Source of the DNA: Oscillospiraceae bacterium
GTDB lineage: Bacteria > Bacillota > Clostridia > Oscillospirales > Oscillospiraceae
NCBI GenBank assembly: GCA_022846095.1
Contig: AP025583.1
Coordinates: 3,123,279-3,187,278, forward strand
DNA length: 64,000 nt
Reading direction: 5' to 3'
A program made the translations under genes and the position numbers. Below the pieces are notes generated by a model. It did no database searches and was not told the DNA's origin. It was given only the letters and a program-made list of their open reading frames with translations. Below are positions 5,120 to 40,224 of the stretch, in pieces (the first letter of the stretch is position 1; the number at the start of each line of letters is the position of its first letter).

Positions 5120-6013
5120 TCACAGGTCGAAAAAGCTCAGCTGCCTGTCCCCGTAGCCCCGCTGGTAGGCCCCCACGATTTGCTCCATGCGGTAGAGGAG
5201 GCCCAGCTCCCCGCACCGCCGGGTAAACGCGCCCCATAGCTGCTTCGCCCGGGGGCTGGGGCACTCGTACCGCGCCCCGTACTGCCGCAGGTAGCGTTCG
5301 GACAGGCCCTGGCCGGGGAAGGCGGCCTCCAGCCCCGCCAGGTAGTGGGCGCGCTGGCCGTCCCGCATGGTCATGCCGAAGGCGGGGTAGACGAACTTCG
5401 CCCCCGCCTGCGCCGCGGCCTCCGCCACGCTCAGCACGTTAGCCGTGCTGTCCTCCAGAAAGGGGAGCACCGGCATCAACAGCACGCCGGTGAAGATCCC
5501 CGCCCGGGACAGCTTGCGCACCGCCTCCAGCCGCCGGGCGGGGGAGGGCGCGCGGGGCTCCACCTTGGCGGCCAGGGCCTCGTCGGTGGTGGTCACGGTC
5601 AGCTTGCAGATCACCGGCACGTGCTCTTGCATCAGGCCCAGCACGTCGATGTCCCGGGCAATGAGGTCGCTCTTGGTGGCGATGCCCACCCCGAACTGGA
5701 AGGCGTCCAGCAGCTCCAGGGCGTGGCGGGTGAGCCGGAGCTCCTCCTCGAAGGGGTTGTAGGGGTCGGACATGGAGCCCATGCCCACGATGCCCGGGCG
5801 CGTCTTGCGCCGCAGGTCGTCCCGGATAATCTCCAGGGCGTTTTCCTTGGCGCGCACCGTGTCGAAGCCCTCGATGCGGTAGCAGTCGCTGCGGGAGTCG
5901 CAGTACAGGCAGCCGTGGCAGCAGCCCCGGTAGATATTTACGGTGTGGTCGGTGCCGAACCACGCCGTGCTCTTGTTGCGGATCACCAGGTGCTTGGCCG
6001 GGATATACTCCAT
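5120..6013 (-). CDS. radical SAM protein, SPL/DNA-repair-photolyase-like family (COG1533-type)
   Basis: CCHGCLYC gives a C-x3-C-x2-C radical-SAM cluster motif about 30 aa from the N-terminus. The ~298-aa size fits SplB-like proteins. True start MEYIPAKHL (ATG 6011-6013) is preceded by a GGAGGGGG ribosome-binding site; the ORF-track start at 6205 is an upstream extension. Confidence 0.65.
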   Translation of the reverse strand: MEYIPAKHLVIRNKSTAWFGTDHTVNIYRGCCHGCLYCDSRSDCYRIEGFDTVRAKENALEIIRDDLRRKTRPGIVGMGSMSDPYNPFEEELRLTRHALELLDAFQFGVGIATKSDLIARDIDVLGLMQEHVPVICKLTVTTTDEALAAKVEPRAPSPARRLEAVRKLSRAGIFTGVLLMPVLPFLEDSTANVLSVAEAAAQAGAKFVYPAFGMTMRDGQRAHYLAGLEAAFPGQGLSERYLRQYGARYECPSPRAKQLWGAFTRRCGELGLLYRMEQIVGAYQRGYGDRQLSFFDL

Positions 6014-6236
6014 AGCGCCCCCTCCTGTCCCACCCAGTGTACCATAAAACGGCCCCGGCGGGAAGCCCGCCGGGGCCGTTGCGGCTCGTCGAAAAGCCGG
6101 ATGTATGTATTGTTTTCGCGGCTCGGGCGAATAAGGCGGCCCATGGTGGACGGGCGATTCGTGAATCGCCCCTACGGGCCTGGAGCGGCGGGCCGATGAG
6201 GGCATCGGCCCCTACGAGTGCCAAGCAAGCCTCTGG

Positions 6237-6497
6237 GGCATGGCAGTACGGGCGGCTTTTCAGGCACCTGTTGAACCGCAACTACTTTCAAGTCTGGGCG
6301 GGTCATGTGCCGCAGGGGCGGCAGCCCTACTTACAGAGGGCACAGGCCGAACCGAGCCCTGAGCGCTTACAGGTTTTGCAGGTTACCTGAACCGCACCGC
6401 CGCGGGGCCCCCGGGTCCAGGGCCGAAGCCCTGGTTGTTTCTTCCCGGGGTTCTTTGCAAGCAAAGAATCCCGCCGCCGGAGGCCGGGCCTCCGAAA
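6237..6497 (+). repeat. ~260-bp GC-rich structured repeat element, copy A (inverted partner at 14343-14603)
   Basis: About 90% identical to the reverse complement of 14343-14603. Contains internal palindromes ttctttgcaagcaaagaa and ccggaggccgggcctccgg. Several A/B differences are compensatory within predicted stems, e.g. caggtt...acctg versus ttcaggt...acctgaa. Confidence 0.8.
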
Positions 6498-6575
6498 AAA
6501 GGAGCGGATTGCCGCGTCGGCCCCGCGGGGCCTCCTCGCAATGACAAGGTGCGCCTTCTCCCCCGAAGGTGCGCC

Positions 6576-7940
6576 CTACCCCGGCAGCTCGGTGAGCCAG
6601 TACCCCGGCCCGCTCGCCTCCCCGTCCAGGGGAATCATCCAGTAGCCCACGGCGATGCCGGTGACCTGCGCCGGGTCGACGGGCGCGTCGAAGGACCAGT
6701 GGTTGAAGGCGTAGCCGCCGTTGGGGTGGTAGGCGCTGTCGCTGTCCCCGGCGCTCACCCAGCTCCCGTCGGCCAGGCGCACCGCCAGCGGGTAGGAGAG
6801 CACCCCCGCCCCGCCGTTGGGGTCGCTCTCGATGGACACGCCCAGGGTGGTCACCGCCGCCTGCGTCGCGGTGACGCTGCCGATGGTCTCGTCCAGCGTT
6901 ATCACCCGCTGGGGTACGTCCTCCAGGGGCACCGAGAGGGCCCACGCCCCCTTGACGGCGGGGGCGGTGTAAATCCGGCCCTGGGCCGTACCCACCTCCA
7001 GATCCGCCAGCTCCTCCGGCCCGGCGATCCAGGAGTTGTCACAGTACCAGTGCCCGTCCCGCTGAAAGATGCTCTCCTGGTAGGTCATGTTGTACGCCAT
7101 ATTCTCGTCATAGTACTCCTCGTAGTGCTCCTGGTAGGTGATGTGCTCCACAAAGGCTACCAGGTAGGACCGCTCCGGGTCGGCCCCGTCGGCAAGGCGG
7201 AACTGCACGTGGACCCTGCCGTCGCCGCCGAAGCCCAGGGAGGACAGCGCCGCCCAGTCGGTGCCCTCCAGCGCCGCCGGGGTCTGCTCCGGCGTGAGCA
7301 CGGTCTCCCCCGTGTCCAGGGTCTCGGCCGCCAGCACCCCGGCGGTCAGCGCCACGGGGAAGGCGGCGTCCTCCACCCGGTACACCCCAGGCTCAAAGCC
7401 GCCGATCTCCACCTCCAGCGTCCCGCCGCTGGCCGGATGGCCGTCCCCGTTGAAGTCCAGGACGTAGGTCACCACCCCGGTCTCCGGGTCGAAGCCCGCG
7501 TTGCCGCCGTAGCTCCAGCTCCCCCCGCCATAGTCCGCCTCGGGGCGGTCCAGATACAGGCTGTGGATGTGGGTTAAGGCGTCCAGCCGTTTCCCCTCCA
7601 GATCCCGCACCTCCAGCACCACCCGGGCCAGGTTGCCGTCGGACAGGGCGGACACCGCCCGCACCTCGATCCCCTGGTCGGCCGCCGCCACCCCCTCCAC
7701 CGGGGCGGCGTAGGGGGTGAAGAGGCCCAGAACCTCCCGCAGGCCAGGCGACAGGGCCAGGGCCGTGCCCGCCAGCAGGGCGCAGGCCGCCGCGGCCAGC
7801 ACCAGCGTGCGCACGCGCCGCCGCCGGGGCCGGGCCTGCGCCGCCGGGATCTCCCCCGCGTCCAGCTTTTCCAGCGTCCGGCGCTTCCAATCCTCGCCGG
7901 CGCGGATCTTGTCCATCGCGTCGTAATAGGGCTTACCCAT
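6576..7940 (-). CDS. putative membrane-anchored anti-sigma factor (single TM, large extracytoplasmic domain)
   Basis: 454-aa ORF overlapping the upstream ECF sigma gene by 8 nt. It has a short cytoplasmic N-terminus and a hydrophobic TM segment (LVLAAAACALLAGTALAL). Genomic context is the main evidence for the anti-sigma call. Confidence 0.5.
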   Translation of the reverse strand: MGKPYYDAMDKIRAGEDWKRRTLEKLDAGEIPAAQARPRRRRVRTLVLAAAACALLAGTALALSPGLREVLGLFTPYAAPVEGVAAADQGIEVRAVSALSDGNLARVVLEVRDLEGKRLDALTHIHSLYLDRPEADYGGGSWSYGGNAGFDPETGVVTYVLDFNGDGHPASGGTLEVEIGGFEPGVYRVEDAAFPVALTAGVLAAETLDTGETVLTPEQTPAALEGTDWAALSSLGFGGDGRVHVQFRLADGADPERSYLVAFVEHITYQEHYEEYYDENMAYNMTYQESIFQRDGHWYCDNSWIAGPEELADLEVGTAQGRIYTAPAVKGAWALSVPLEDVPQRVITLDETIGSVTATQAAVTTLGVSIESDPNGGAGVLSYPLAVRLADGSWVSAGDSDSAYHPNGGYAFNHWSFDAPVDPAQVTGIAVGYWMIPLDGEASGPGYWLTELPG

Positions 7941-8418
7941 GGCTCTGCGCCTCCTCCAGCAGGATTTTCAGCTTTTTCCGCGCCCGGGTCAGCCGGGCCC
8001 CCACCGTGTTGGGCTTCTCCCCCACCAGATCCGCGATCTCCGCGATGGTGTATCCCTCGTAGTAGTGCAGGTAAATCACGTCCCGGTCCTTCGGCGGCAG
8101 GGCGCGCACCTCCTCCAGGGCCTCCCGCTCCTCCGGCGCCAGGGCGGGCAGGCCCTCGCACAGCGGCGCGGTGCGCCGCCACCAGGCCGAGGCCGCCAAA
8201 TTGCTGCACTTGTTCAGCGTCACCCGCACCAGCCAGCGCCGCAGGTGCTCCTCGCCCTGGAACTCCCGCTGGCCCATCAGGCTCAAAAAGACCTCCTGGG
8301 CCGTGTCCTCCGCGTCCGCCACGCTCCCCAGCCGCTGGCAGGCCAGGCGCAGCACCATGTCGCCGTAGTCCTCCATGGCCCGCGCCGCCAGCGCCCGGTC
8401 CGCCTTCAACGTCTCCAA
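7933..8418 (-). CDS. ECF-type RNA polymerase sigma-70 family factor
   Basis: 161 aa. It carries the sigma-70 region 2 motif (DAEDTAQEVFLSL) and region 4 HTH (YTIAEIADLVGEKPNTVGARLTRARKKL). Confidence 0.85.
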   Translation of the reverse strand: METLKADRALAARAMEDYGDMVLRLACQRLGSVADAEDTAQEVFLSLMGQREFQGEEHLRRWLVRVTLNKCSNLAASAWWRRTAPLCEGLPALAPEEREALEEVRALPPKDRDVIYLHYYEGYTIAEIADLVGEKPNTVGARLTRARKKLKILLEEAQSHG

Positions 8419-8477
8419 TGCCCCCGCCCCCTTTCACCTGTAAAACAGTTCAGCGGCCCGTTTTCGCGCATCCCGGC

Positions 8478-8512
8478 AGAAAAAGTCCCGGACAGGCCGT
8501 CCGGGACTTTTT
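8478..8512 (-). terminator. rho-independent terminator downstream of gtrA-like gene
   Basis: Hairpin aaaaagtcccggac-aggcc-gtccgggacttttt with U-run. Confidence 0.6.
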
Positions 8513-8513
8513 C

Positions 8514-8915
8514 TCACTTCTTAAACGCAAAGAACCGCTGGCCGAAGTAGTTCAGCCCGGTGTACAGGCACATGCCCGCCAGCATGGCCACGTTCTCCTG
8601 CACCTTCAGGCTCTGCCCCGAGAGCGCCCAGAGCACCGCGGGCTTGGCCACCGCGTAGGCAATGATATAACACACCGCCACGTTGAGGGCGAACCTCCCC
8701 ACCTGGGACCAGGACCAGTCCCGGTTCTGAAAGGTGAAGTACTTGTTGAGGAAGAAGCTCAAAATGCTCCCCGCCACGTAGTTGCACGCGGAGGACACCC
8801 AGTAGGAGCACCCCGCCCAGTTGTAGAGCAGGAACATAATCCCCGCGCCCACCAGGGTGTTCAGCACCCCCACCAGCAGGAATTTGGGGATGGACTTGTC
8901 AAACAGCCTGGCCAT
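8514..8915 (-). CDS. GtrA family polysaccharide-synthesis membrane protein
   Basis: 133 aa with 4 TM segments, typical GtrA-like size and hydrophobicity. It overlaps the 3' end of the upstream GT2 gene, giving the classic gtrB-gtrA arrangement. Confidence 0.7.
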   Translation of the reverse strand: MARLFDKSIPKFLLVGVLNTLVGAGIMFLLYNWAGCSYWVSSACNYVAGSILSFFLNKYFTFQNRDWSWSQVGRFALNVAVCYIIAYAVAKPAVLWALSGQSLKVQENVAMLAGMCLYTGLNYFGQRFFAFKK

Positions 8916-9873
8916 CGTCCGCCTCCAGCACCTCCCGGATCAGGAACCGGGGCCTGCCCTTGCTCTCCAGGTAGATCTTTCCGATATACTCCCCGATGAT
9001 GCCCAGGGAGAGCAGGATCAGCCCCCCGATGGCCCACACCGAGCAGATCACGCTGGCCCAGCCCACCACCGTGGCCCCGTGGGCCCAGCGCACCACGGAG
9101 TAGATGAGCATGGCGATGGACACCAGGAAGATCAGCACGCCCAGTCCGGTGATGTACCGGATGGGCTTGGTGGACAGGCTGGTGATGCCCTCCATGGCGA
9201 AGGAGAGCATCTTTTTCAGGGGGTACTTGCTCTCCCCGGCGAAGCGCTCCCCCCGCTCGTACTCCACCGTGCCGGTGTTGTAGCCGATCATGGGCACGAT
9301 GCCCCGGAGGAAGAGATTGACCTCCTTAAATTGGGCCAGCCCCTCCAGCGCCCGGCGGGACATGAGGCGGTAGTCGGCGTGGTTGAACACCGTGTCCGCC
9401 CCCATGAAGCTCATCACACGGTAGAAGCCCTCGGCGGTGAAGCGCTTGAAGAAGGTGTCCTTCTCCCGGCTGGAGCGCACGCCGTAGACGATGTCGCAGC
9501 CCTCGTGGAACTTGTCCACCATGGCGTCCACCGCGTCCACGTCGTCCTGGAGGTCGGCGTCCATGGAGATGGCCATGTCGCAGCGCTCCGCGGCGGTCAT
9601 CAGCCCCGCCAGCAGGGCGTTCTGGTGGCCCCGGTTGCGGGAGAGGTCCACGCCGGAGAAAATTGGGCACTGCCGGTGCAGCCCCTCAATCAGCTCCCAG
9701 GTGCGGTCCCTGGAGCCGTCGTTTACAAAGAGCACCCGGCTTGCGTCCGAGATCTTCCCCGCCGCCGCCAGGCCCTCCAGCTTGTCCCGCAGGCGCCGGG
9801 CCGTCTCGGGCAGCACGGCCTCCTCGTTGTAGCAGGGCACCACGATATATAAAACGTCCTTCAAGGGCTTCAC
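8899..9873 (-). CDS. family 2 glycosyltransferase, bactoprenol/dolichol-phosphate hexose transferase (GtrB-like), C-terminal TM helices
   Basis: VVPCYNEE and the DGS.D GT-A motifs are present, plus two C-terminal TM helices. The start is placed at the GTG (VKPLKDVLYIVVP) preceded by AAAGAGGA; the ORF-track M at 9963 has no ribosome-binding site. Confidence 0.8.
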   Translation of the reverse strand: MKPLKDVLYIVVPCYNEEAVLPETARRLRDKLEGLAAAGKISDASRVLFVNDGSRDRTWELIEGLHRQCPIFSGVDLSRNRGHQNALLAGLMTAAERCDMAISMDADLQDDVDAVDAMVDKFHEGCDIVYGVRSSREKDTFFKRFTAEGFYRVMSFMGADTVFNHADYRLMSRRALEGLAQFKEVNLFLRGIVPMIGYNTGTVEYERGERFAGESKYPLKKMLSFAMEGITSLSTKPIRYITGLGVLIFLVSIAMLIYSVVRWAHGATVVGWASVICSVWAIGGLILLSLGIIGEYIGKIYLESKGRPRFLIREVLEADDGQAV

Positions 9874-10028
9874 ATCCTCTTTGCAGTCGTTGGGAATTAT
9901 TATACCCCCTTCAGACGAAAAAGGGAACACTTGAGTTCCCGGCGCGGCGCGCAGGCTTCCCAAGCAGGGAGGCCGGGGAATCCGCCTCCGTGGAGGGCGG
10001 CCCCCGGCCCCTCTGCTTTGATACGCTC

Positions 10029-10739
10029 CTATTCCTCCAGCTTTCGCCGCAGGTGCTCCATGGCCTTGCGCTCGATGCGGGAGACCTGCACCTGGCTCAC
10101 CCCCAGCACGCGGGCCGTGCGGTCCTGGGTCAGGTTCTTGAAAAAGCGCAGCAGCACCACCGCCCGCTCCCGCTCGGGCAGGGTGTCGATGGCGGCGCGC
10201 AGCGCCACCTGCTCCACCACCCGCTCCTCCATGCCGTCGGTGCCCAGCACGCTCTCCAGGGTCAGGCCGTCCCCCGTCTCCATCTGGAGGGAGGCCACCG
10301 GGCGGTTGGCGTCCTCGGCGGCGGCGATCTCCTCCGCCTCCAGCCCGGTCTCCTCCGCCAGCTCCGAGAGGGTGGGCTCCCGCCCCAGATCCAGGGCCAG
10401 CCGCTCCCGGGCCGAGCGGATGGATCCCGCCCGCTCCTTCAGCCCCCGGCTCACCTTCACCGCCCCGTCGTCCCGCAGGAAGCGGCGGATTTCCCCGGCG
10501 ATCTTGGGCACGGCGTAGGTGGAGAACTGGCAGCCGAAGGCGGGGTCGAAGCCCCGCACCGCCTTGAGAAAGCCCAGGCAGCCCAGCTGGTAGAGGTCCT
10601 CCGGATCCACGCCCCGGCCGTAATACCGGCGCACGATGCTCCAGATGAGCCCCGCGTTCTCCTCCATCAGCCGGGCGCAGGCGTCGTTGTCCCCGCGGCG
10701 GGCCGCGTCCAGCACTTCGGGGGTGTCCGCTACACTCAC
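10029..10739 (-). CDS. sigF: sporulation sigma factor SigF (RNA polymerase sigma-F)
   Basis: 236 aa sigma-70 family protein located directly after spoIIAA-spoIIAB. GTG start overlaps the spoIIAB stop (GTGA). Regions 2 and 4 are present (YQLGCLGFLKAVRGFD; LTQDRTARVLGVSQVQVSRIERKAMEHLR). Confidence 0.85.
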   Translation of the reverse strand: MSVADTPEVLDAARRGDNDACARLMEENAGLIWSIVRRYYGRGVDPEDLYQLGCLGFLKAVRGFDPAFGCQFSTYAVPKIAGEIRRFLRDDGAVKVSRGLKERAGSIRSARERLALDLGREPTLSELAEETGLEAEEIAAAEDANRPVASLQMETGDGLTLESVLGTDGMEERVVEQVALRAAIDTLPERERAVVLLRFFKNLTQDRTARVLGVSQVQVSRIERKAMEHLRRKLEE

Positions 10740-11185
10740 GCCAGCCCTCCCAGGCGGCGGGAGATGCGCTTGCAGAGCACCACGGTGGTCCCCTTTCCGG
10801 GAATGGAGCGGATTTTCAGGTTGTCCATAAAGCTCTCCATGATGGTGAAGCCCATGCCGGAGCGCTCCTCGCTGCCGGTGGTGAAGAGGGGGGTGCGGGC
10901 CTGTTCCACGTCTCCGATGCCCACGCCCCAGTCCCGGACGGTAATCTCCAGGCTGTTGTCCGCCAGCAGCCTCATTTTCAGGCTCACCTTGCCCAGCCTG
11001 TCCGGGTAGGCGTGGACGATGCAGTTGGTCACCGCCTCGCTGACCGCCGTCTTGATGTCGTTCACCTCGTCCAGGGTGGGGTCCAGCTGGGCCGCGAAGC
11101 AGGCCGCCGCCGTGCGGGCAAAGCCCTCGTTGGCCGAGCGGCTGACAAAGGTGATCGCCGCCTCGTTGAGCACTTCTTTTTTCAT
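10736..11185 (-). CDS. spoIIAB: anti-sigma F factor SpoIIAB (HATPase-type serine kinase)
   Basis: ~149 aa with a GHKL ATPase motif (VTNCIVHAY ... GMGFTIM). Start MKKEVLNEA is preceded by GGGGGAA. Confidence 0.85.
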   Translation of the reverse strand: MKKEVLNEAAITFVSRSANEGFARTAAACFAAQLDPTLDEVNDIKTAVSEAVTNCIVHAYPDRLGKVSLKMRLLADNSLEITVRDWGVGIGDVEQARTPLFTTGSEERSGMGFTIMESFMDNLKIRSIPGKGTTVVLCKRISRRLGGLA

Positions 11186-11198
11186 ATGTACGTTCCCC

Positions 11199-11504
11199 CT
11201 ATTCAAACTTCATCAGCCGGTTGAGCCCCGCGGCCTTCAGCACCCGCGCCGCCTGGGCGGGCACGTTGGTCACGCGCACCGAACCGCCCAGCTCGCCCAG
11301 CCGCTTATAGGCCCGCAGCAGCACCGCGATGCCCGAGCTGTCCATAAAGCTCACGCCCCCCAGATCCAGCGTCAGTGAGCGGGGCAGCGCCGCGTCCACG
11401 CAGCGCTCCAGCTCCGCCATCATCTCCCTGGCCCCGTGGTGGTCCACCTCGCCGGACAGGTGCAGCGTCAGCGCCCGGTCCTCCCCCGTACAGGTCACTG
11501 CCAT
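11199..11504 (-). CDS. spoIIAA: anti-sigma factor antagonist SpoIIAA (STAS domain)
   Basis: ~101-aa STAS protein (MAVTCTGE...DLGGVSFMDSSGIAVLL). An AGGAGGG ribosome-binding site precedes the ATG at 11502-11504. The ORF-track entry 11199-12428 is an upstream over-extension. Confidence 0.85.
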   Translation of the reverse strand: MAVTCTGEDRALTLHLSGEVDHHGAREMMAELERCVDAALPRSLTLDLGGVSFMDSSGIAVLLRAYKRLGELGGSVRVTNVPAQAARVLKAAGLNRLMKFE

Positions 11505-11602
11505 AGCTTGTCCCTCCTGTTTTGACACAAAAAATCGCCATATACCAAAATATGGTATATGGCGATTATAGCGCATTGATCCCGGCTTTTTTGTCGAACC
11601 GG

Positions 11603-12433
11603 TTAATTGCAGAGGTAAAATTCGGTAAATAACCACTTGTCCCCCACCTGGACGTAGGGAAAATCGTGGGTTTCGCTGCCCACGGGGGCGTAGTCCTGCT
11701 CCGGGTCCAGCACCGGCACGGTGGCCCGGACCACGATACCGCCGTCCTGCCGCAGCACCTGGAGCGCCGCCGGGCCCCGGGTGGGGTCGGGCGCCTGCAC
11801 GCCCGGGTGCACGAAGAGCCGCCCGTCCACCTCCACGTACTGCTGCCCGCCGGCGGGGAGCAGCGCGTCCACAATCTCGTCGGAGAATAGGTTTTTCAGG
11901 TAGCCCCGCAGATCCGCCATGGCGGACAGGCCGGGATAATTTACGGGGTAGTACACCGTGCCGTCCACGTCCAGGGGCTCGTCCAGGTAGGGCAGGGTCT
12001 CCCGGTAGAACCAGCCGTAGGCCTCGCGGGCCTGCCGGTAGGCCTCCAGCACCTGCTCGTCCGTAGGCAGGGCGGGTTCCGGCTCCGGGGTGGGGCTGGG
12101 CGCGGCGGTGGGCACGGGCGTGGGGACGGGTTCGGGCTGGGGGACGGGCGTGGGCTCCGGCGTGGGGACAGGCTCCGGGGTGGGCATGGGCGCGGGGCGC
12201 ACCGCCACCGGCTCGCTGGGCTCCGGCGTGGGCGCGGGCTCCGGCTCCGGGGCGGGCGTGGGCGAGCTGAGCGGCGTCTCCACCGGCCCGGGCTCCGGCG
12301 TGGGCGCGGGCGCGGGGGTGCGCACCGGGGGCTGGCTGGGCGTGGCGGAGACCTCTTCCCGTCCGTTCAGGGAACACCCCGTTAAAATCAGGCAAAAAGC
12401 CAGCGCAAAGGCGGCGATTCGGTTCCATTTCAT
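11603..12433 (-). CDS. lipoprotein with Pro/Thr/Glu-rich linker and C-terminal globular domain (function unknown)
   Basis: Signal peptide plus lipobox (LILTGCS), a ~100-aa PEPT-rich low-complexity linker, and a ~150-aa C-terminal domain. AGGAGGG ribosome-binding site. Confidence 0.7.
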   Translation of the reverse strand: MKWNRIAAFALAFCLILTGCSLNGREEVSATPSQPPVRTPAPAPTPEPGPVETPLSSPTPAPEPEPAPTPEPSEPVAVRPAPMPTPEPVPTPEPTPVPQPEPVPTPVPTAAPSPTPEPEPALPTDEQVLEAYRQAREAYGWFYRETLPYLDEPLDVDGTVYYPVNYPGLSAMADLRGYLKNLFSDEIVDALLPAGGQQYVEVDGRLFVHPGVQAPDPTRGPAALQVLRQDGGIVVRATVPVLDPEQDYAPVGSETHDFPYVQVGDKWLFTEFYLCN

Positions 12434-12576
12434 AGGCGTTGCCCTCCTAAGTATCTATTGTATCCATTCCTATGCCGCTTCACAACTACAGATGAATTAC
12501 AAATGATGACAAAAGAGGCCGGGAAATAGACAGCACCCCGCCGCGGTGCTATGCTTTACGGGAGGTGCTGCGCCCG

Positions 12577-13738
12577 ATGAAAAAACAACTTTTATGGATT
12601 TTGTCCATCCTTTTCCTGCTCGGCGGCTGTAAGGCGGCCCCCGGTTCAGACTCCAAGCCCCACAATGGCCGCACCCACCCCCGCGCCGGAGCCCACCCCC
12701 CTGTCCGACCCGGACGTGGCCTGCGACGAGACGGACCTGGCGCAGTGGCAGAAGGCCTATTTGGCCTTTCTGCGGGAGCTCTGCGCCCGGGAGGCCCCCA
12801 TCCGGCGGGCCAACGGGGGAGCGCTCTTTTTTGACGGGGACCCCCAGCTGAGCAGCAGCTACGCCCTCTACGACATCGACAAGGACGGGGTGCCCGAGCT
12901 GTTCCTGGAATACGGCTCCACCGCCACCGAGGTATACACCATGCGGGACGGGGCGGCGGTGCTCTGTCCGGGGGAGGAGCTGTATTTAAAGAGCGCCAGC
13001 CTGTACACCTGGCCGGGGGAGAACGGGGTGCTCTTCCGCTGGGGCCGCATGGGCGGGGCGTTTATGAACAAAATCAGCCTGGTGGACGGGGTGCTGGTGA
13101 CCCAGGCAAATATATTTACGGAGGGGTACGCGGCGGGCTCCGAGGCCGTGGAGGATTACACCGAGCCGTGCCAGGTGGTGCCCGGCTCAGAGTACATCGA
13201 TCCGGACCGCACCTTCGTCACGCTGCCCGGCTGCGCCCCCCTGGCCCTGCCCATCTACCGGTACGGGCTGGAGCAGCCCCTCCCCACCGCCTGCGCCGGG
13301 GATACCCGCGCCGCCATCGGGGCGGTGCTGGCCGGGCGGCGGCCCCTGTACGGCGTGAGCGGGGACGGCTTCGATGGGGACACGGGCTGGCTCACCCTTG
13401 AGGAGTACTGCCGGCCGGGGGTTGCCAGCCGCTACGCCAAGCTGCCCCTGCGGCTGGAGGAAAAATACTGGCTGGATCTGAACGGGGACGGGCAGGAGGA
13501 GTGCGTCCTCCGACTCCGGGAGGAGGGGGACGGCGGCCTCTCCCCCTTCGTGATCCTCAGCTGTCAGGACGGTGTGGTGTACGCCTACTGCATCAATTAC
13601 ACCTCGGAGAGCGTACTGCGGCAGGACGGGAGCTTCTCCGCGGGCGGGTGGTGCTTCAGCCTATCCTTTTGGAAAAACCAGTGCACGCAGATCAACCGCC
13701 TCTACGTCCCCGGCGCGCCCCCCGCCGCACAGGAGTAA
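12577..13738 (+). pseudogene. putative lipoprotein gene with an apparent -1/+1 frameshift between signal peptide and mature domain
   Basis: Frame 1 encodes the lipoprotein signal MKKQLLWILSILFLLGGCKAAP (GGGAGGTG ribosome-binding site) and then terminates at 12834. Frame 2 is open across the same stretch and continues as a natural Pro-rich linker (PVQTPSPTMAAPTPAPEPTPL...) into a 357-aa body ending at 13738. The switch point maps to a C5 homopolymer at 12637-12641. Confidence 0.55.
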
Positions 13739-13851
13739 AGCCGCTTTTCCCCCTTTTATTGAGCAAATGAATGGACAAGGGGCGTTTGTCATGCTATTCT
13801 AAATACAGGCCCAACAGGCCCGTATACAGTTCAAAACGGAAAGGAGACGGC

Positions 13852-14232
13852 ATGGCGTTGAATATCAATATGGAGCAGTATTGGAAGGCTGTCGTCGCAA
13901 AGGACGCGGCTGCCCTCCGGGCGTTCTTCACCCCGGACGCCTGCATTAAATGGCACAACACCAACGAGCAGTTTACCCTGGAGGAGTATATCCGCGCAAA
14001 CTGCGAATATCCCGGCGAGTGGGTGGGCGAGATCGAGCGGCTGGAGGACGCGGGGCGCTGTATCATATCGGTGGCCCGGGTCCAGAGCGAGAACGGCGCC
14101 GTCGCCTTCCACTGCATCTCGTTTATGACCCTGGAGGACGGCAGAATCAAGACCATGGACGAATACTGGGGGGACGACGGCCCCGCGCCCTGGTGGCGCC
14201 AGGAGAAGGAGATCGGCTCCCCCATCCGGTAA
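13852..14232 (+). CDS. NTF2-like / SnoaL-like small protein
   Basis: 126 aa. Start MALNINMEQYW is preceded by AAAGGAGACGG. Size and composition fit the NTF2-like fold (weak call). Confidence 0.5.
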   Translation: MALNINMEQYWKAVVAKDAAALRAFFTPDACIKWHNTNEQFTLEEYIRANCEYPGEWVGEIERLEDAGRCIISVARVQSENGAVAFHCISFMTLEDGRIKTMDEYWGDDGPAPWWRQEKEIGSPIR

Positions 14233-14261
14233 CGCCGGCCGAACCACCCGAACATAGCCTC

Positions 14262-14298
14262 CAAAAAACGCGGCGCCGGCTTAATGCCGGCGCCGCGT
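14262..14298. terminator. bidirectional rho-independent terminator
   Basis: Perfect palindrome aaaacgcggcgccggc-ttaa-tgccggcgccgcgtttt. Confidence 0.7.
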
Positions 14299-14342
14299 TT
14301 TATCAGCCAGGGGCGATAGATTGAACGAATTGATGCCTGCTG

Positions 14343-14603
14343 TTATGCATCCCGTTTTCTGGAGGCCCGGCCTCCGGCGGCGGGATTCTTTGCTTGCAAA
14401 GAACCCCGGGAAGAAACAACCAGGGCCTGCGGGCCCTGGACCCGGGGCCCCGCGGCGGTGGGGTTCAGGTAACCCGTAAAACCTGAAAGCGCTCAGGGCT
14501 CGGTTCGGCCTGTGCCCGTTGGTAGTAGGGCTGCCGCCCCTGCGGCACATGACCCACCCAGACTTGGTAATAGTTGCGGTTCAATGGGTGCCTAAAAAGC
14601 CGC
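14343..14603 (-). repeat. ~260-bp GC-rich structured repeat element, copy B (inverted partner of 6237-6497)
   Basis: Reverse complement aligns end-to-end with 6237-6497 at about 90% identity. A smaller hairpin motif (cattgcgag...ggcaatc) also recurs next to both copies, at 6500-6555 and 14610-14660. Confidence 0.8.
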
Positions 14604-14678
14604 ACGGACTGCCATGCCCCGTTCCCGTCATTGCGAGGGCCGCAGGCCCGCGGCAATCCGTCTTCTCCCCCCCGCCCT

Positions 14679-19169: not shown

Positions 19170-19440
19170 AAGTTTTGTTGAAAAAAACGCCCTGAGCCGT
19201 CGGCTCAGGGCGAAATCAATCCGTGGTACCACCTGAATTCGGGCATTCGCCCGCACTCGTAAGCGTCCGTAACGCGGACGTGGCGCCGGGGCTTGCCGCA
19301 GCTGGGCTCCGGGGCTCAGGGACGACCTTCCGCGCGCTTCCGGGAGGCCTTGCACCAAACCGGCCCCTCTCTGTACCTTGCCACGCGCGTACTGCTTCCC
19401 ATCCTCGCCTTTTGCAGTATAACTTTCATTAGTATATGCA
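19170..19440 (-). promoter_or_regulatory. T-box riboswitch leader (tRNA-sensing antiterminator) for the membrane-protein-valS operon
   Basis: On the minus strand: an AGAGA-containing stem I region, then the conserved T-box sequence aattcaGGTGGTACCACGG, then a terminator gccctgagccgacggctcagggc plus U7. A candidate Val specifier GUC lies in ...ggaagGUCgtcc. A candidate promoter sits at about 19405-19445. Confidence 0.75.
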
Positions 19441-19572
19441 AAGGCGGGAAAAATGTCAAGGACAATCGCGATTTGGCCCATTTCCGGCGAGGGGCTTGGT
19501 AAGCATCGGGCAATATGCTATAATCACGATAAAGCTGGCGAATCTCAAATGAGAGAGAATGGGCGGGTGGAG

Positions 19573-20178
19573 ATGAAAGAGATTATTCGCTTTTTTGAGG
19601 CGAACGTGAATGGCAAAACGCTGTATACAAAGGAATTGGTATACGAACTGGAGCATGGCGCGTTGCAGGGCGTTTACTCTGATCAAATATCCTTTTCCAA
19701 TCTGAAGTATTCGCAAAGTGGTTTTCAGCTGGATATGTTTATTGTATCCAACGAAAAGATCTGGCTCCTGGGCGCGGGTGGACAGCGGGAGGAGCTGCGA
19801 AAAGACTTCAGCGGCGTATCCCTGTTCCGTTTTGAATTGGCGCAGAGAAAAAGCACAAATGATGTGACCGGCTGTTTTCGGTTCATTTCCGCTTCAGGAA
19901 AAAATGTGGCGGCAGAGGCTGTCGTAAGCGGTATTTATGATGTTCGGCTTGATAACGGTGTGCTGAAATTATCGGAAGATCAGGTTTTGTACCGGGATCA
20001 GCCGGTACAGGGCGGGCGGTTCAAGCCAGTTTCATTTCAATCGGAGCATCGTTTTTATGTAAAGGACGAAAAGCTGCATTACGAATATGATGGAACGTCT
20101 TTTGACGTTGACACAAAAACCATGCGGCGACGAGACAGCGCTGATGCCTTTCCCCCGTTTATTTCAATCGAGCGGTAA
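19573..20178 (+). CDS. hypothetical protein (no recognisable family), located in a low-GC islet
   Basis: ORF with a GGGTGGAG ribosome-binding site before MKEIIRFF. Local G+C is visibly lower than flanking DNA (~45% vs ~65%). Confidence 0.5.
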   Translation: MKEIIRFFEANVNGKTLYTKELVYELEHGALQGVYSDQISFSNLKYSQSGFQLDMFIVSNEKIWLLGAGGQREELRKDFSGVSLFRFELAQRKSTNDVTGCFRFISASGKNVAAEAVVSGIYDVRLDNGVLKLSEDQVLYRDQPVQGGRFKPVSFQSEHRFYVKDEKLHYEYDGTSFDVDTKTMRRRDSADAFPPFISIER

Positions 20179-20229
20179 TCCATATTCCATAAAAACACGG
20201 CGGCGATTTCAAATTTGAGGAGTAAATGC

Positions 20230-20814
20230 ATGACTGAGCGGGAAAAGATGTTGGCCGGACAGCTTTATGATTGCGGCGATGCGGAATTATTGAAGCAATG
20301 GCACAAAGCGAAAGATTTAATGAGAGATTATAACAATACCGACTCGGCGGATATAGAGAAGAAGAAAAATATTTTAAAGCAGCTGTTGGGTGGAAGCGGA
20401 GATAGCCTTTGGATTACAGCCCCGTTCTATGTTGACTATGGCAACAATATTTACTTTGGGAATAACTGTGAAGTCAATATGAATTGTACTTTTTTAGATG
20501 ATAATATCATCCAAATTGGAAATAATGCGCTCATTGCGCCCAATGTGCAAATTTATACCGCATATCATCCAACAAACGCTATCGCCCGCTTCGGGCAGCC
20601 AGGACAAGATGGTTCCTTCGCGTTTTGTAAAACACAAACCGCGCCGGTTATCATTGGGGATCGTGTATGGATTGGGGGAGGGGCCATCATCATGCCGGGC
20701 GTTACGATTGGGGATAACGTCGTAATTGGGGCAGGGAGTGTCGTCACAAAAGATATTCCCAGCAATTCCATAGCATACGGAATTCCTTGCCGGGTGGTGA
20801 GGGAAAACAACTGA
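20230..20814 (+). CDS. maltose/galactoside O-acetyltransferase family (left-handed beta-helix hexapeptide repeats with Mac N-terminal domain)
   Basis: The N-terminal MAT/Mac-type domain (LAGQLYDCGDAELLKQWHKAKDLMRDYNNT) is followed by hexapeptide repeats (IGDRVWIGGGAIIMPGVTIGDNVVIGAGSVV). GAGGAG ribosome-binding site. Lies in the low-GC islet. Confidence 0.8.
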   Translation: MTEREKMLAGQLYDCGDAELLKQWHKAKDLMRDYNNTDSADIEKKKNILKQLLGGSGDSLWITAPFYVDYGNNIYFGNNCEVNMNCTFLDDNIIQIGNNALIAPNVQIYTAYHPTNAIARFGQPGQDGSFAFCKTQTAPVIIGDRVWIGGGAIIMPGVTIGDNVVIGAGSVVTKDIPSNSIAYGIPCRVVRENN

Positions 20815-20916
20815 ATTTCTGTAACGCACATTTTCCAATTTACCGGTTGTATTTATCCGCGCCATTGTGGTATCAGACGTAGTAACGACTCAACAAAAGT
20901 TGAAGGCGGGGACGGA

Positions 20917-21165
20917 ATGGACGAAAGAGAATTGCTCGAGCACCTGGATCGGCTGCACACAACGGATATGGGGGCCGCCAGGATCAAGCGGAACCTGGCG
21001 CTTACGGCGCCCGACGCCGTGGCCTGGTGCAGGGATCGCATCCTGCGCCCGGACGCGCGGATTACGCGCGCGGGCAAGAACTGGTATATCGCCACAGACG
21101 GCTGCCGGATCACCGTGAACGCCTCCAGCTACACGGTCATCACGGCCCACAAGGAGGAGACTTGA
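20917..21165 (+). CDS. DUF3781-like small protein
   Basis: 82-aa ORF carrying the LHTTDMG motif region. Family assignment is from memory only. Confidence 0.45.
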   Translation: MDERELLEHLDRLHTTDMGAARIKRNLALTAPDAVAWCRDRILRPDARITRAGKNWYIATDGCRITVNASSYTVITAHKEET

Positions 21166-21168
21166 GGC

Positions 21169-21591
21169 ATGGCGGACACAAACATCAAGCTGTACATGGT
21201 CACGATGGACTGCAAGGACCCCTACGCGCTGGCAAAATTCTACGCGGATCTGCTCCAATGGGTCATCCCGTTCCACGACGAGGACTGGGCCTGCGTGGGC
21301 CCCCCGGGGACGGAGCAGGGGGCCTACCCCGGCATCACGTTCCAGCGCAATCCCGCGTACGTCCCGCCCGTGTGGCCGGAGCAGCCCGGGGCCCAGCAGA
21401 CGATGGCGCACCTGGATTTCGCCGTCAACGATTTGGAGGCGGCGGTGCTGGCCGCCGTGGGCTGCGGGGCCCGGGTGGCGGACGGGCAGTGCTCCGACGG
21501 CTGGACGGTCATGCTCGACCCCGCCGGGCACCCCTTCTGCCTGTGCGGGATGGGGCCGCTCTTCGACAGCCCGCATTTCGCGCTGCGATAG
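21169..21591 (+). CDS. VOC (glyoxalase/bleomycin-resistance fold) family protein
   Basis: 140 aa. AGGAGGAGA ribosome-binding site. Typical paired beta-alpha-beta-beta-beta VOC sequence features, including the HLDFAVNDLEAAV region. Confidence 0.6.
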   Translation: MADTNIKLYMVTMDCKDPYALAKFYADLLQWVIPFHDEDWACVGPPGTEQGAYPGITFQRNPAYVPPVWPEQPGAQQTMAHLDFAVNDLEAAVLAAVGCGARVADGQCSDGWTVMLDPAGHPFCLCGMGPLFDSPHFALR

Positions 21592-21605
21592 CAAAAAAAC
21601 CTGAA

Positions 21606-21645
21606 AACCGGGGGCCGCTTACAAGCGGCCCCCGGTTTTTGTCCG
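21606..21645. terminator. bidirectional rho-independent terminator
   Basis: Hairpin aaaaccgggggccgcttacaagcggcccccggttttt between convergent genes. Confidence 0.7.
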
Positions 21646-21647
21646 TT

Positions 21648-22112
21648 CTACTCCTCCGGCCTGCCCCGCACCGGGCTGCGGGTGAAGTCGGGGGTAATCT
21701 TGTTGGCCTCCAGGATGTCCCCCAGCGCGTCCACGTACTTCTCCGCCTTGTGGACGGCGAAATTGTTGGCGTCGATGGGGATGTCCAGCTCGTCCATGCG
21801 CCGGATGCTCCAGATATAGAGCATGTCCAGCGCGGGGATGACCTTCTCCCCCGCCGGGGTGAGCACGTACTCCACCTTGGGGGGCACCGTGTCGTAGGAG
21901 ATCCGGCGCACCAGCCCGTCCTCCGCCAGCTCCTTAAGCTGCTGGCTGAACACCTTCTCCGAGATGGGCAGCTCCTTCAGCGTCTGGTTGAAGCGGATGC
22001 TGCCCCAGATGTAGATCTCGTGGAGAATGGTCATCTTCCATTTCCCGCCGATACAGTGGCGGATATAGTGGTAGGGGTTCACCGGCTCTTCCATCTCCGT
22101 ACGGGTTGCCAT
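21648..22112 (-). CDS. HxlR-family winged-helix transcriptional regulator
   Basis: 154 aa. HxlR/DUF24-type HTH core (CIGGKWKMTILHEIYIWGSIRFNQTLKELPISEKVFSQQLKELAEDGLVRR). Confidence 0.75.
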   Translation of the reverse strand: MATRTEMEEPVNPYHYIRHCIGGKWKMTILHEIYIWGSIRFNQTLKELPISEKVFSQQLKELAEDGLVRRISYDTVPPKVEYVLTPAGEKVIPALDMLYIWSIRRMDELDIPIDANNFAVHKAEKYVDALGDILEANKITPDFTRSPVRGRPEE

Positions 22113-22454
22113 CGCTCTCCCACCCTTCCTGTTAAAACTTTAACCATAGTATACCGTGTTTTATCCCCGGGGACAAGAGGCGCGTGACGGCGGCCGCCAA
22201 ATCTTTCGCCTGCTATTTGTACAGACTGTACAGTATAAATCACCATTTTTCGTCATGTCTCCCAAATTATAAGCCCGGCTTATCGTCGCCTTGTACAAAA
22301 ATCAGCTACTTACCATTTGGTATCTGCTTACTTTTTGGTAATTTGATTACATTCTTGTGCGTATTGCACGTTTTATTTGTACACTTTATACTAACGCCAG
22401 AAGCGAAGGGGGCGGCGAGAGCCCCCAATCAGACAGTGAAAGGATGATCGTCAA

Positions 22455-22808
22455 ATGATCAAGCGCACTCTGGAAGAGCTCAGCACCTATGAGGCCCCCG
22501 GCCACTTCGGCGTGTCCTGCATGCGGATTCACGGCAAGGAGGAGACCGGCGCCCAGAAGTTCTGGATCGGCCAGTCCGTGTTCCTGCCCGGCGGCGGCGC
22601 CGAGTACGCCTACGAGGACAACCCGCTGGAGAAGGTGTACTACGTGCTGGAGGGCGAAATGACCGTCACCGACAAGGCGGGCAAGAAGTACGTCATCCAC
22701 AAGGACGAGGCCATCTCCTTCCCCCCCAACGAGGGCCGCTACCTGAAGAACGAGACCAACCGCCCCGCGCGTATGCTGGTCATCATCAACTACCCCGACG
22801 CGCAGTAA
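22455..22808 (+). CDS. cupin domain protein
   Basis: 117 aa. Cupin beta-barrel motifs (FLPGGGAEYAYEDNPLEKVYYVLEGEM). Confidence 0.65.
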   Translation: MIKRTLEELSTYEAPGHFGVSCMRIHGKEETGAQKFWIGQSVFLPGGGAEYAYEDNPLEKVYYVLEGEMTVTDKAGKKYVIHKDEAISFPPNEGRYLKNETNRPARMLVIINYPDAQ

Positions 22809-22826
22809 AGAAGGAGGAACTACAAA

Positions 22827-23624
22827 ATGGCTATTAACGTGACCAAGAATCTGGTTGACAACCTGTTTTCCATTGAGGGCAAGGTCGCCATCGTCACCGG
22901 CGCCACCGGCGCCCTGGGCGGCGCCATCGCCATGGGCTACGGCCTGGCCGGCGCCAAGGTGGTGGCCACCGCCCGCAACGAGAAGAAGCTCCAGGCCGTG
23001 GTGGAGCAGGTCAAGGCCGCCGGCTGCGAGATCACCGGCTTTGTGGCCGACCCCGGCAGCGAGGCCGACGTGCAGAACCTCATCAAATGCGCGGTGGACA
23101 CCTACGGCGAGCTGAACATCCTGGCCGTCGCCCACGGCTTCAACAAGCCCCAGAACATGCTGGAGCAGTCCGTGGCCGACTGGCAGTACATCATGGACGC
23201 CGACCTGAAGAGCGTGTACGTGGTCTCCAAGTACGCCGCCCAGCAGATGGCCGACCAGGGCAAGGGCGGCAAGCTGGTGGTGGTCTCCTCCGCCCGCTCC
23301 AAGATGGGCATGGCCGGCTACACCGGATACTGCGCCAGCAAGGGCGCCTGCGACCTGATGATCCAGTCCATGGCCTGCGACCTGTCCGCCAAGTACAAGA
23401 TCAACGTCAACACCATCAACCCCACCGTCTTCCGCTCCGACCTGACCGAGTGGATGTTCGACCCCGAGTCCGCCGTGTACCAGAACTTCCTCAAGCGCCT
23501 GCCCATCGGCCGGCTGGGCGAGCCCGACGACTTCCTGGGCCTGGCCATCTTCCTGGCCGCCCCCGCCTCCGACTTCCTCACCGGCGGCAACTACGACGCC
23601 ACCGGCGGCTACTGGGCCTGCTAG
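22827..23624 (+). CDS. SDR-family NAD(P)-dependent oxidoreductase
   Basis: TGATGALG Rossmann motif and YxxxK catalytic motif (YCASK). Confidence 0.85.
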
Positions 23625-23666
23625 TAAAAAGCCCGCGGGCTTTTTACTGACAAGGAGGAAAACGAC

Positions 23667-24596
23667 TTGAAAAACATCAAAAACATTCTCATCTGCGGCG
23701 CGGGTATGATGGGCAAAAACATCGGCTTCGTCTTTGCGTCCAACCCGGACTTCAAAGTCGGCCTGTACGACCTGTACCCCACCGATGTTGAGGCGGGCAT
23801 CCGCGCCAACACGAGGCAGCTGGTGGAAAAGGGCGTACTGACCGAGCAGGAGCTCGCCGCGCGCCTGTCCCGCATCTCCTTCACCAGCGACATCGACAGC
23901 GCGCTGGTAAAGGACGCCGACCTCGTCATCGAGGCCGTGTTCGAGGACATGGGCATCAAGCGGGAGACCTTCGCCAAGCTGGAGGCGCGCTGCCGCCCGG
24001 ATACCATCTTCTGCACCAACTCCTCGGTGATGAGCCCCTCGGAGATCTCCGCGCAGCTCAAGCACCGGGAGCGCTTCGTGGGCACCCACTTCTGGAACCC
24101 CGGCCACCTCATCCCCCTGGTGGAGGTGGTCAAGTCGGACGCCTCCAGCGAGGAGACCGCCCAGACCGTCATGGAGGTGCTGCGCTCGGTGGGCAAGCGC
24201 CCGGTGCTGTGCAAAAAGGACGTGCCCGGCTTCATCGCCAACCGGATGCAGCACGCCCTGTGGCGGGAGGCCATCTCCATCGTGGAGCACGGCATCGCCG
24301 ACGCCGCCACCGTGGACGAGGCGGTGCGCTGCTCCTTCGGCCTGCGCCTGCCCCAGCTTGGGCCCATGGAGAACGCCGACATGGTGGGCACCGATCTGAC
24401 CTACAACATCCACGACTACATCCTGCGCGACCTGGAGTCCTCCCCCGAGCCCTCCCCCCTGCTCAGGCAGCTGCGGGACGAGGGGAAGCTGGGCTTCAAG
24501 TCCGGCGAGGGCTTCCAGAGCTGGACGCCCGACCAGGTGGCCCAGTCCAACGCGGAGCTCAACGACTACCTTATCCGTATGCTCTACGGAAAATAA
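23667..24596 (+). CDS. 3-hydroxyacyl-CoA dehydrogenase family protein (L-carnitine-DH-like NAD-binding + C-terminal domain)
   Basis: TTG start with AGGAGG ribosome-binding site. GAGMMG NAD motif and the HFWNP region, typical of the HCDH/CDH family. Confidence 0.75.
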   Translation: MKNIKNILICGAGMMGKNIGFVFASNPDFKVGLYDLYPTDVEAGIRANTRQLVEKGVLTEQELAARLSRISFTSDIDSALVKDADLVIEAVFEDMGIKRETFAKLEARCRPDTIFCTNSSVMSPSEISAQLKHRERFVGTHFWNPGHLIPLVEVVKSDASSEETAQTVMEVLRSVGKRPVLCKKDVPGFIANRMQHALWREAISIVEHGIADAATVDEAVRCSFGLRLPQLGPMENADMVGTDLTYNIHDYILRDLESSPEPSPLLRQLRDEGKLGFKSGEGFQSWTPDQVAQSNAELNDYLIRMLYGK

Positions 24597-24674
24597 CCCC
24601 TTCACCATCCCTCCCCCCTGGAACTACCCCTCACCAGAAGCCAACCCTTTACTAAATAAGGAGGAACCTATATT

Positions 24675-32772: not shown

Positions 32773-32837
32773 ATGCTGCCGCAGCTGGGACGGGAAGGGC
32801 CCGACCCTAATTTTGGCGTCCTTCTGCGCTTAGTGTG

Positions 32838-34871: not shown

Positions 34872-34985
34872 TCCCTATCTACCTCCAATCAAATTAGAGC
34901 CGCACTTCCTCGGGCTCCTATACAAATGATACAACAGCGCCCCGGTAAAATCAACCATTTTCCTGTGCACTTTCACAAAAAGTCA

Positions 34986-35025
34986 CCCGCCCGCGGCATG
35001 AGCCGCGGGCGGGTAAAAAATTCTG
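34986..35025 (-). terminator. rho-independent terminator downstream of the SLH-nucleotidase gene
   Basis: Minus-strand hairpin acccgcccgcggctcatgccgcgggcgggt followed by TTTTTGT. Confidence 0.65.
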
Positions 35026-35048
35026 CAGTTTTTCGTGACTTCAGCTGC

Positions 35049-38261: not shown

Positions 38262-38491
38262 TGAGACATTCCACCTTTCATTCCAGATAGGGGTTTCCCC
38301 TATAGTTTGGACAAACTAATAGTAACAAAACGGAAACAAGATTACAAGTGCCCCGGGCAAAAAACTTAGGAAAATGTACCCGCGGGCCCCCGCCCTCCCC
38401 GGTCATTTTTCGCCGCTTTATACAAAGAAGGGCGGCGGGGCTTCCGCCCGCGCCGCCTTTGACGACAGATTCAGTTTTCCCGGGCCGGGGC

Positions 38492-40144: not shown

Positions 40145-40147
40145 CAT

Positions 40148-40224
<77 letters not shown>

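Follow-up and report, generated by a model that had tools for sequence, protein, structure and literature searches.

Genomic context of the element

The region considered here, called the window, is a 64-kb stretch of contig AP025583.1 from an Oscillospiraceae bacterium. It contains two inverted copies of an element of about 263 nt, which we name EL. Copy A (EL-A) is situated in the gap between a radical S-adenosylmethionine (SAM) gene and an operon that encodes an extracytoplasmic function (ECF) sigma factor and, in an overlapping gene, a protein of 454 aa without a Pfam match, a putative anti-sigma factor. EL-A lies in the 3' region of this operon and is antisense to it. Copy B (EL-B) lies 3' of the stop codon of a DUF3795 gene, in the sense orientation and before a bidirectional intrinsic terminator. 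The block between the copies also encodes GtrA and a family-2 glycosyltransferase, the STAS/HATPase/SigF trio corresponding to spoIIAA-spoIIAB-sigF, and two lipoprotein-like proteins. The genes at and after the EL-B side encode SnoaL_2, DUF3795, a WYL regulator and ValS. The families were read from the Pfam records of called genes on sister contigs, and confirm most of the gene list proposed earlier in a reading of this DNA made from its letters alone (below, the sequence-only reading). The protein accessions are BDF71947 for SigF, BDF71954 for DUF3795 and BDF71939 for the product of aspA at the left edge of the window. Features of both loci are listed in Table 1.

Table 1. Features of the two EL loci in the window (L numbers denote fetched loci)
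Feature	Coordinates	Strand	Comment
Radical-SAM gene	5120-6013	-	Pfam family on sister contigs
Left short inverted end, cassette A	6126-6138	+	GGCGAATAAGGCG
REP1a palindrome	6152-6175	+	GGGCGATTCGTGAATCGCCCCTAC; opposite strand reads GTAG, then hairpin
REP1b palindrome	6190-6215	+	GGGCCGATGAGGGCATCGGCCCCTAC; tandem with REP1a; present also in cassettes of L015, L017, L026 and L097
EL-A	6235-6502	+	core 6235-6493, then a weakly conserved A-rich tail to 6502
Terminator-like hairpin in EL-A	6417-6444	+	CCAGGGC-CGAA-GCCCTGG (6417-6434), then TTGTTTCTTC; stem invariant in 13 copies, loop varies
REP2, 40-nt variant	6506-6545	+	GGATTGCCGCG...CTCGCAATGAC; 3' of EL-A; identical variant adjoins EL in L016 and L019
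Right short inverted end, cassette A	6552-6564	-	GGGGGAGAAGGCG on the - strand
Bidirectional intrinsic terminator	14263-14301	.	common to SnoaL (+) and the DUF3795 operon (-); read from sequence
EL-B	14620-14352	-	core 14361-14620
Terminator-like hairpin in EL-B	14410-14439	-	stem 8 bp, loop CGCA
REP2, 33-nt variant	14627-14659	-	5' of EL-B; same variant in L017 and L097

The two copies in the window

Two inverted copies of about 90% identity had been claimed for this region, and both the repeat finder and the gapped alignment bear this out. The former gave two pairs of inverted-repeat arms, 6235-6450/14405-14620 (216 nt, 84% ungapped) and 6428-6502/14352-14426 (75 nt, 96%), and in the latter EL-A and EL-B are ~90-91% identical across ~265 nt (blastn E ~1e-87). 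Two 30-mers taken from EL have no sites in the window other than the two copies, where shuffles expect 0. The hairpin ttctttgcaagcaaagaa is present in both copies, as had been stated. The second palindrome is ccggaggccgggcctcc(g/a), with arms of 7-8 bp, and falls short of the 19-mer quoted for it. The small hairpin cattgcgag...ggcaatc, correctly placed beside both copies by the sequence-only reading, is the module named REP2 in Table 1; its side differs between the copies. A collapsed repeat or another assembly artefact is ruled out, as independent metagenome contigs cross EL with unique flanks (L002, L023, L027, L028, L016, L097). It had also been considered that only these two copies might exist; further ones were found, and thus the repeat family is real, which does not rescue its interpretation as an RNA.

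Structure of the cassette

EL belongs to a mosaic intergenic cassette of ~300-450 bp, of which it is the largest module. In its fullest form, observed in L016 and at the first of the two window loci, the cassette consists of an inverted end, a spacer, the repetitive extragenic palindrome (REP) REP1a, optionally REP1b, ~16 nt, EL, an A-rich linker, REP2, AGGGTG and the second inverted end. REP1b, like REP1a, reads as GTAG followed by a hairpin on the opposite strand; EL itself lacks the GTAG head. In every cassette REP1a and REP1b point the same way, and no inverted doublet of the type called REPIN was seen. The window contains one REP1a, one REP1b and two REP2 sites in 64 kb, all adjoining EL. 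Candidate terminal inverted repeats are seen at the level of the cassette only, EL alone having none. At the window locus with EL-A they are imperfect and 13 nt long; elsewhere they are GATAAGGCGCA/TGCGCCTTATC in L016 (GGAGATAAGGCGCA / TGCGCCTTATCCGCC as given with its full cassette anatomy) and GGCGGATAAGGCG in L019 and L103. The cassettes occupy gene-poor gaps, mostly between convergent genes or directly after stop codons.

Two further observations concern these modules. The 10-mer GGCGCACCTT occurs twice in direct orientation at window positions 6546-6580, directly after the anti-sigma stop codon, and flanks the right inverted end of cassette A; its counterparts in L017 differ, being GGCATACCTT and GGCGGCCTT. 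The 24-nt REP1a GGGCGATTCRTGAATCGCCCCTAC (full form GTAG...CTAC) has 116 sites in 61 IMG/VR loci (L035-L095) on viral or prophage contigs, with up to seven sites per locus, mostly between genes and never adjoining EL. Candidate roles for the viral sites are those of a terminator, a packaging signal or a mobile REP.

Distribution

EL is known so far only from one lineage of gut Oscillospiraceae (CE91St40/41 and related gut metagenome strains), where it occupies at least four intergenic contexts. The most informative copies came from contigs fetched via flanking proteins. Locus A is the radical-SAM/anti-sigma gap (window), locus B the SnoaL/DUF3795 gap (window, L002, L023, L027, L028), locus C lies beside a cyclophilin lipoprotein gene (L016), and locus D lies downstream of aspA (L019, L097-L106), which falls just outside the left edge of the window in the source genome. 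At locus B, EL was found in five further strains (L002, L023, L027, L028, plus partial copies), with flanks 93-100% identical to those in the window. The cyclophilin lipoprotein gene of locus C belongs to a 90% protein cluster without any protein of the source genome, and this context probably belongs to a relative.

Other searches were less productive. A scan of genome_contigs (GTDB species representatives) with the 21-mer TTCTTTGCAAGCAAAGAATCC returned only L012 and L013, where the similarity does not extend (nhmmer E = 0.5 and 0.019), and both were rejected as chance matches; such a scan undercounts, since some true copies carry variants of the 21-mer. A scan of JGI metagenomes with ATGTGCCGCAGGGGCGGCAGCC yielded two true copies, L015 and L016, and also L014, a match of 23 nt only that is likewise ascribed to chance. 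EL had no blastn match in plasmids and phages, two EL core motifs had none in exact-pattern scans of IMG/VR, and an nhmmer profile of EL retrieved no distant relatives from 645 kb of fetched loci, the 61 REP1a-bearing viral loci included. EL breaks short-read assemblies of this gut lineage, which stop exactly at the cassette modules. In L098, the contig end (5762-5772) is CTGTCTCTTAT, presumably the start of a Nextera adapter and hence adapter contamination of a public metagenome assembly.

Variation between closely related strains

The comparisons were made between strains with identical flanking proteins or with flanking DNA 93-100% identical. EL is missing from locus A in L017, L018 and L019, in all of which the radical-SAM protein is identical; the gap from the anti-sigma stop to the radical-SAM start is 310 nt in these strains vs 562 nt in the window. 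The EL-less gap keeps REP1a, REP1b and REP2, reversed relative to the same flanks.

All three comparable loci occur in both orientations among the strains: A (window vs L017 and L015), B (window vs L026) and D. At locus D, EL is on the minus strand in L019, L097-L099, L102 and L105, and on the plus strand in L103, L104 and L100. At locus B, the cassette of L026 is of the type seen at locus A (REP1a, REP1b, EL and half of REP2), reversed between the same terminator and stop codon, and its EL has positions 84-238 deleted. The terminator is the outer limit of the variable cassette at this locus and is kept in L023, L026 and L028 despite their differing cassettes. The aspA locus provides an insertion and a partial tandem duplication: in L100 (5591-5739) a 55-nt palindrome (TCCAGGTGTCC..GACACCTGGA) is inserted at about EL position 85, and in L097 (5478-5954) the order is a full EL, REP2, a REP1b-like unit and another EL that ends at position 131.

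L015 is probably an allele of locus A with EL in the opposite orientation. Directly after its EL, at 356-1202, there is AT-rich, Bacteroides-like DNA (the N-terminus of a CysQ-like protein and a TolC-like gene). Transfer of the cassette into Bacteroidetes was rejected as an explanation; the junction is probably an assembly chimera via the shared 19-mer ATGGGCCGCCTTATCCGCC, which matches the inverted end of the cassette and, within the Bacteroides-like DNA, codes for KADKAAH of the CysQ-like protein.

In the EL orthologues at locus B, the 5' domain is 91-99% and the 3' domain 95-100% identical to the window, and the third codon positions of the SnoaL, DUF3795 and WYL genes are 90-100% identical. 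Thus EL is not clearly more conserved than neutral sites. Its differences are clustered and common to several strains as haplotype blocks, some of them recombined: L027 and L028 have the same 5' block and different 3' parts, and the locus B copy of L002 resembles copy A more than copy B. We take the shared blocks as a sign that alleles or copies exchange sequence, and not that single sites compensate one another. Hypervariability through diversity-generating mutagenesis was considered and rejected, as the changes are not adenine-specific, are shared as blocks and amount to the divergence of third codon positions.

A probable mobile or recombinogenic repeat

With a probability of about 0.6, the EL cassette is a non-coding and non-autonomous mosaic intergenic repeat, so far seen in this lineage only, mobile or recombinogenic, of the kind represented by miniature inverted-repeat transposable elements (MITEs) and bacterial interspersed mosaic elements (BIMEs). 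Of the options listed in the sequence-only reading, the MITE/REP-like one is thus preferred, given the at least four contexts, the REP palindromes with short inverted ends, and the polymorphism of presence, orientation and internal structure between close strains. As expected of a MITE, the cassette is small and non-coding and has several dispersed copies, with filled and EL-less sites among the strains. It would spread or be reshuffled at the level of DNA. One possible route is mobilisation in trans by an enzyme that recognises the hairpins or the inverted ends of the cassette; another is ectopic recombination combined with template switching between the palindromic modules. The GC-rich hairpins may in addition affect the host by terminating transcripts or protecting their 3' ends. 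EL-A and EL-B are then independent members of the family that lie in opposite orientation 7.9 kb apart by chance, the genes between them are ordinary chromosomal ones, and it is by coincidence that they form an inverted pair around the sigF block.

Several observations weigh against this interpretation. At loci A, C and D, the sequence beyond the inverted ends shows no target-site duplication or other direct repeat. A clean empty site was not recovered, as the EL-less allele of locus A still holds REP modules. Ten ORFs (open reading frames) scanned in compositionally atypical parts of the window include no transposase or recombinase, and no similarity that would point to a related autonomous insertion sequence with the same ends was seen elsewhere in the window, in plasmids and phages or in the 645 kb of fetched loci. 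The EL copies visible in the window number two. Several helices are invariant in 13 copies, and the hairpins concerned might have a structural role in DNA or RNA. Finally, the reverse strand would form the RNA tetraloops c(UUCG)g, c(UGCG)g, c(UACG)g and g(CUUG)c, a weak hint of selection at the level of RNA.

Only the flips at three loci go beyond what is routine for such a repeat, and a small probability is therefore kept for an enzyme-driven invertible or hairpin-mobilised element. In the most elaborate version, which we consider improbable, the cassette is an undescribed flip-and-move element that combines REP-type hairpins with a structured payload of 263 nt. An enzyme acting in trans (an invertase or a HUH/Y1 transposase) would invert it between the 13-15-bp ends and copy it between gaps, and the payload would serve as a one-directional terminator or 3'-protecting RNA, so that its orientation would change the fate of neighbouring transcripts. 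If the flips prove to be enzyme-driven, this would be a new and easily tested example of DNA inversion on a small scale, or of mobility directed by hairpins, in a gut lineage of the uncultured type for which the isolates CE91St40/41 exist.

Coding potential and RNA structure

That neither copy is coding, as claimed previously, holds for the family: all six frames have stops or frame shifts in some of the eight full copies. Still, the frame GAWQ...QVT* is open in most copies and has several synonymous differences between EL-A and EL-B, and a frame started by ATG, MCRRGG..., is open in all of them. However, in the former L002 and L003 have a TAG and L027 has an indel that shifts the frame, whereas the latter changes register after position 38 in three different ways. 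The frames lack a consistent start codon, translations across EL had no match among 5.8 billion proteins, and the exact ORFs are not in that collection. It is thus hardly conceivable that EL encodes a small protein. The GenBank numbering from BDF71947 to BDF71954 leaves room for one protein-coding sequence more than the genes accounted for (window 14233-14678). This may be a spurious ORF called over EL-B; in an exact look-up of the candidate ORFs across EL-B in the protein collection none was present. The numbering gap suggests that EL may attract spurious gene calls.

EL might also be a functional structured RNA whose fold is under selection, either a small RNA derived from 3' untranslated regions (UTRs) or a module acting in cis to terminate transcripts or protect their 3' ends. 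The sequence-only reading had proposed an unannotated non-coding RNA on the strength of compensatory substitutions. Its example, caggtt..acctg vs ttcaggt..acctgaa, turns out to be a single A-to-T change that lengthens the helix, not a double change. RNAalifold found no compensatory pairs in 13 copies on either strand (61 and 68 predicted pairs), and its covariation terms are unfavourable (+1.48 and +1.72 kcal/mol). When the minimum free energy fold of EL-A is imposed on the alignment, 92.3% of the cells pair vs 92.5% in shuffles, two pairs are changed on both sides vs 2.4 in shuffles, and the covariation score is 0.041 vs 0.044, a value reached by 416 of 500 shuffles. With 13 copies, all at least 86% identical, the power of this analysis is limited, and its outcome is an absence of support rather than a disproof of an RNA. 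A search of the whole window at the Rfam gathering thresholds found a T-box, two tRNAs and a c-di-GMP-I riboswitch, none of them on EL; in a permissive search of positions 6100-6600 the best E-value was 3, with scores of 9-16 bits, that is, noise. Resemblances to tRNA-like RNAs, tmRNA, the signal recognition particle RNA, 6S RNA, domain V of group II introns and omega or bridge RNAs were considered and dropped, as neither Rfam nor the sequence supports them. A search for sigma-70-like promoters in and next to both copies found none.

On the other hand, single-sequence folds of EL are somewhat more stable than those of shuffles (z = -2.0 for the plus strand and -3.4 for the minus strand). Three local hairpins have invariant stems and variable loops, which fits a role in DNA, a role in RNA or simply recent common ancestry. 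The loop variants on the minus strand are of the UNCG class (UUCG, UGCG and UACG), plus CUUG, and a G-U pair of the 13-bp hairpin is replaced by A-U in L002 and by G-C in L019. In both copies a GC-rich hairpin is followed directly by a U-rich tract, the form predicted for an intrinsic terminator; in EL(+) the tract is UUGUUUCUU, and a G-to-T change in L028 lengthens the U run. EL-B has the sense orientation in the 3' UTR of DUF3795, and its terminator-like hairpin would face that transcript. However, the hairpin of EL-A faces no gene, and both arrangements occur at locus D, so that any effect on termination or 3'-end protection would depend on the context, as expected of a side effect of a repeat. 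The orientation of the whole element to the neighbouring transcription is just as inconsistent: antisense at locus A, sense at B and both at D. The predicted long-range pairs are often broken (36:145 in 6 of 11 copies and 54:128 in 6 of 11), the upstream flank is not conserved and differs among the cassette types, strains tolerate the loss of EL, large internal deletions and an insertion, and the divergence is about neutral. A functional RNA is thus unlikely, although the invariant hairpins, the terminator-like module and the UNCG/CUUG loops of the reverse strand leave it some probability, and the earlier proposal is not supported; EL has the look of a conserved structured RNA without support for being one.

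Inversion

Two kinds of inversion have to be distinguished. The larger one, raised in the sequence-only reading, would result from recombination between EL-A and EL-B and turn round the whole stretch between them, from 6.5 to 14.35 kb (ECF sigma, GtrA/GT2, the sigF operon, lipoproteins). Inverted copies of ~265 bp with ~90% identity are in principle sufficient for RecA-mediated inversion. However, strains without copy A (L017, L018, L024) have the same order and orientation of genes in the block, and all five contigs that span locus B (L002, L023, L026, L027, L028) join SnoaL to DUF3795. At 90% identity the copies have not been homogenised, the block contains core sporulation genes with no logic of a switch, and in L015, a probable allele of locus A, EL is reversed, which would make the two copies direct repeats. 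In the only strain with both copies, isolate short-read contigs end at the repeats (6520, 14389, 14633 and 6169), which argues neither for nor against inversion. This suggestion therefore found no support, and we regard it as very improbable.

The smaller inversion concerns the cassette itself, which might be an inverton, an invertible DNA switch, with its short inverted ends as the crossover sites of a recombinase whose gene would lie elsewhere in the genome. Each of the three loci open to comparison has both orientations at one site, within unchanged outer flanks. At locus A only the interior is turned round, the outer half of each inverted end (GAATAAGGCG and GAGAAGGCG) remaining with its flank, as a crossover inside inverted repeats would leave it. 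A cassette of ~300-450 bp with inverted ends of 13-15 bp is also in the usual range of invertons (PMC11892184, PMC11602134). However, the two orientations are never simple mirror images, as they differ in module content (REP2 variant, an extra palindrome, presence of EL) and in the spacer sequence, and they come from different strains or samples, no single sample having shown both. The cassette has no promoter-like site in its interior, no recombinase gene was found near any copy, and as most sites lie between convergent 3' ends, a promoter switch would have no obvious target. An inverton is therefore a rather doubtful explanation of the flips.

Relation to known repeats

A high copy number, tens to hundreds per genome, is a criterion of REP systems, as is a gene for a RAYT (a Y1 transposase), typically with REPs around it; the ten window ORFs scanned gave no transposase family. 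REP-type mosaic repeats are far better described in proteobacteria. The cassette documents repeats of this type in a gut anaerobe of the class Clostridia. Unlike REP systems, they have a very low density here, with one REP1a in 64 kb. In its composition the cassette resembles the BIMEs and REP clusters of enterobacteria and pseudomonads (PMC3116915, PMC3337134), being an extragenic mosaic of short palindromes and other conserved motifs, and REP1a and REP1b have the REP form of GTAG plus a hairpin. As with BIMEs, the sites lie after stop codons or between convergent genes, and the composition of the gap varies between strains. Unlike a REP (20-40 nt) or a REPIN (~100 nt), EL has 263 nt and no GTAG head, and REP1a and REP1b form a tandem, not the inverted doublet of a REPIN.

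Other modular small repeats and MITEs of bacteria include the pneumococcal BOX (boxA-boxB-boxC), RUP and SPRITE, the Correia elements of Neisseria, and ERIC. The cassette is similar to this group in being non-coding, a few hundred bp long, strongly self-pairing, dispersed in intergenic regions, modular (as BOX is) and variable in presence between strains. Repeats of the group can carry hairpins that resemble terminators or stabilise RNA, and terminator-like hairpins are seen in the cassette as well. The likeness to BOX, RUP, SPRITE, Correia elements and ERIC is one of description only, not of sequence similarity. Unlike MITEs, the cassette has neither a target-site duplication nor an identified parent insertion sequence, far fewer copies are visible, and it is confined so far to one Oscillospiraceae lineage.

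With invertons the cassette shares the form of an intergenic segment of a few hundred bp with short inverted repeats, both orientations at one site, and several homologous sites per genome (PMC11892184, PMC11602134). Unlike invertons, it has no internal promoter-like site and no nearby invertase; its orientations differ between strains, and the two forms are not exact mirror images.

Other observations in the window

Two stretches, 19450-24610 and 32835-38264, have a third-position GC content of 0.48-0.61 vs ~0.9 elsewhere. The longest ORFs in them (386, 740 and 1809 aa) have no Pfam match, and the stretches may be wrong-frame ORFs or foreign DNA.

The T-box leader lies upstream of valS at 19203-19414 (-), the two adjacent tRNA genes at 40058-40221 (+), and the c-di-GMP-I (cyclic di-GMP) riboswitch near the right end of the window at 63232-63316 (+). 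Degenerate tandem repeats of 12 and 18 nt (GGCxxGGG-type) are present at 12076-12347 inside the lipoprotein gene 11603-12433 (-), where they encode a linker rich in Pro, Thr and Glu.

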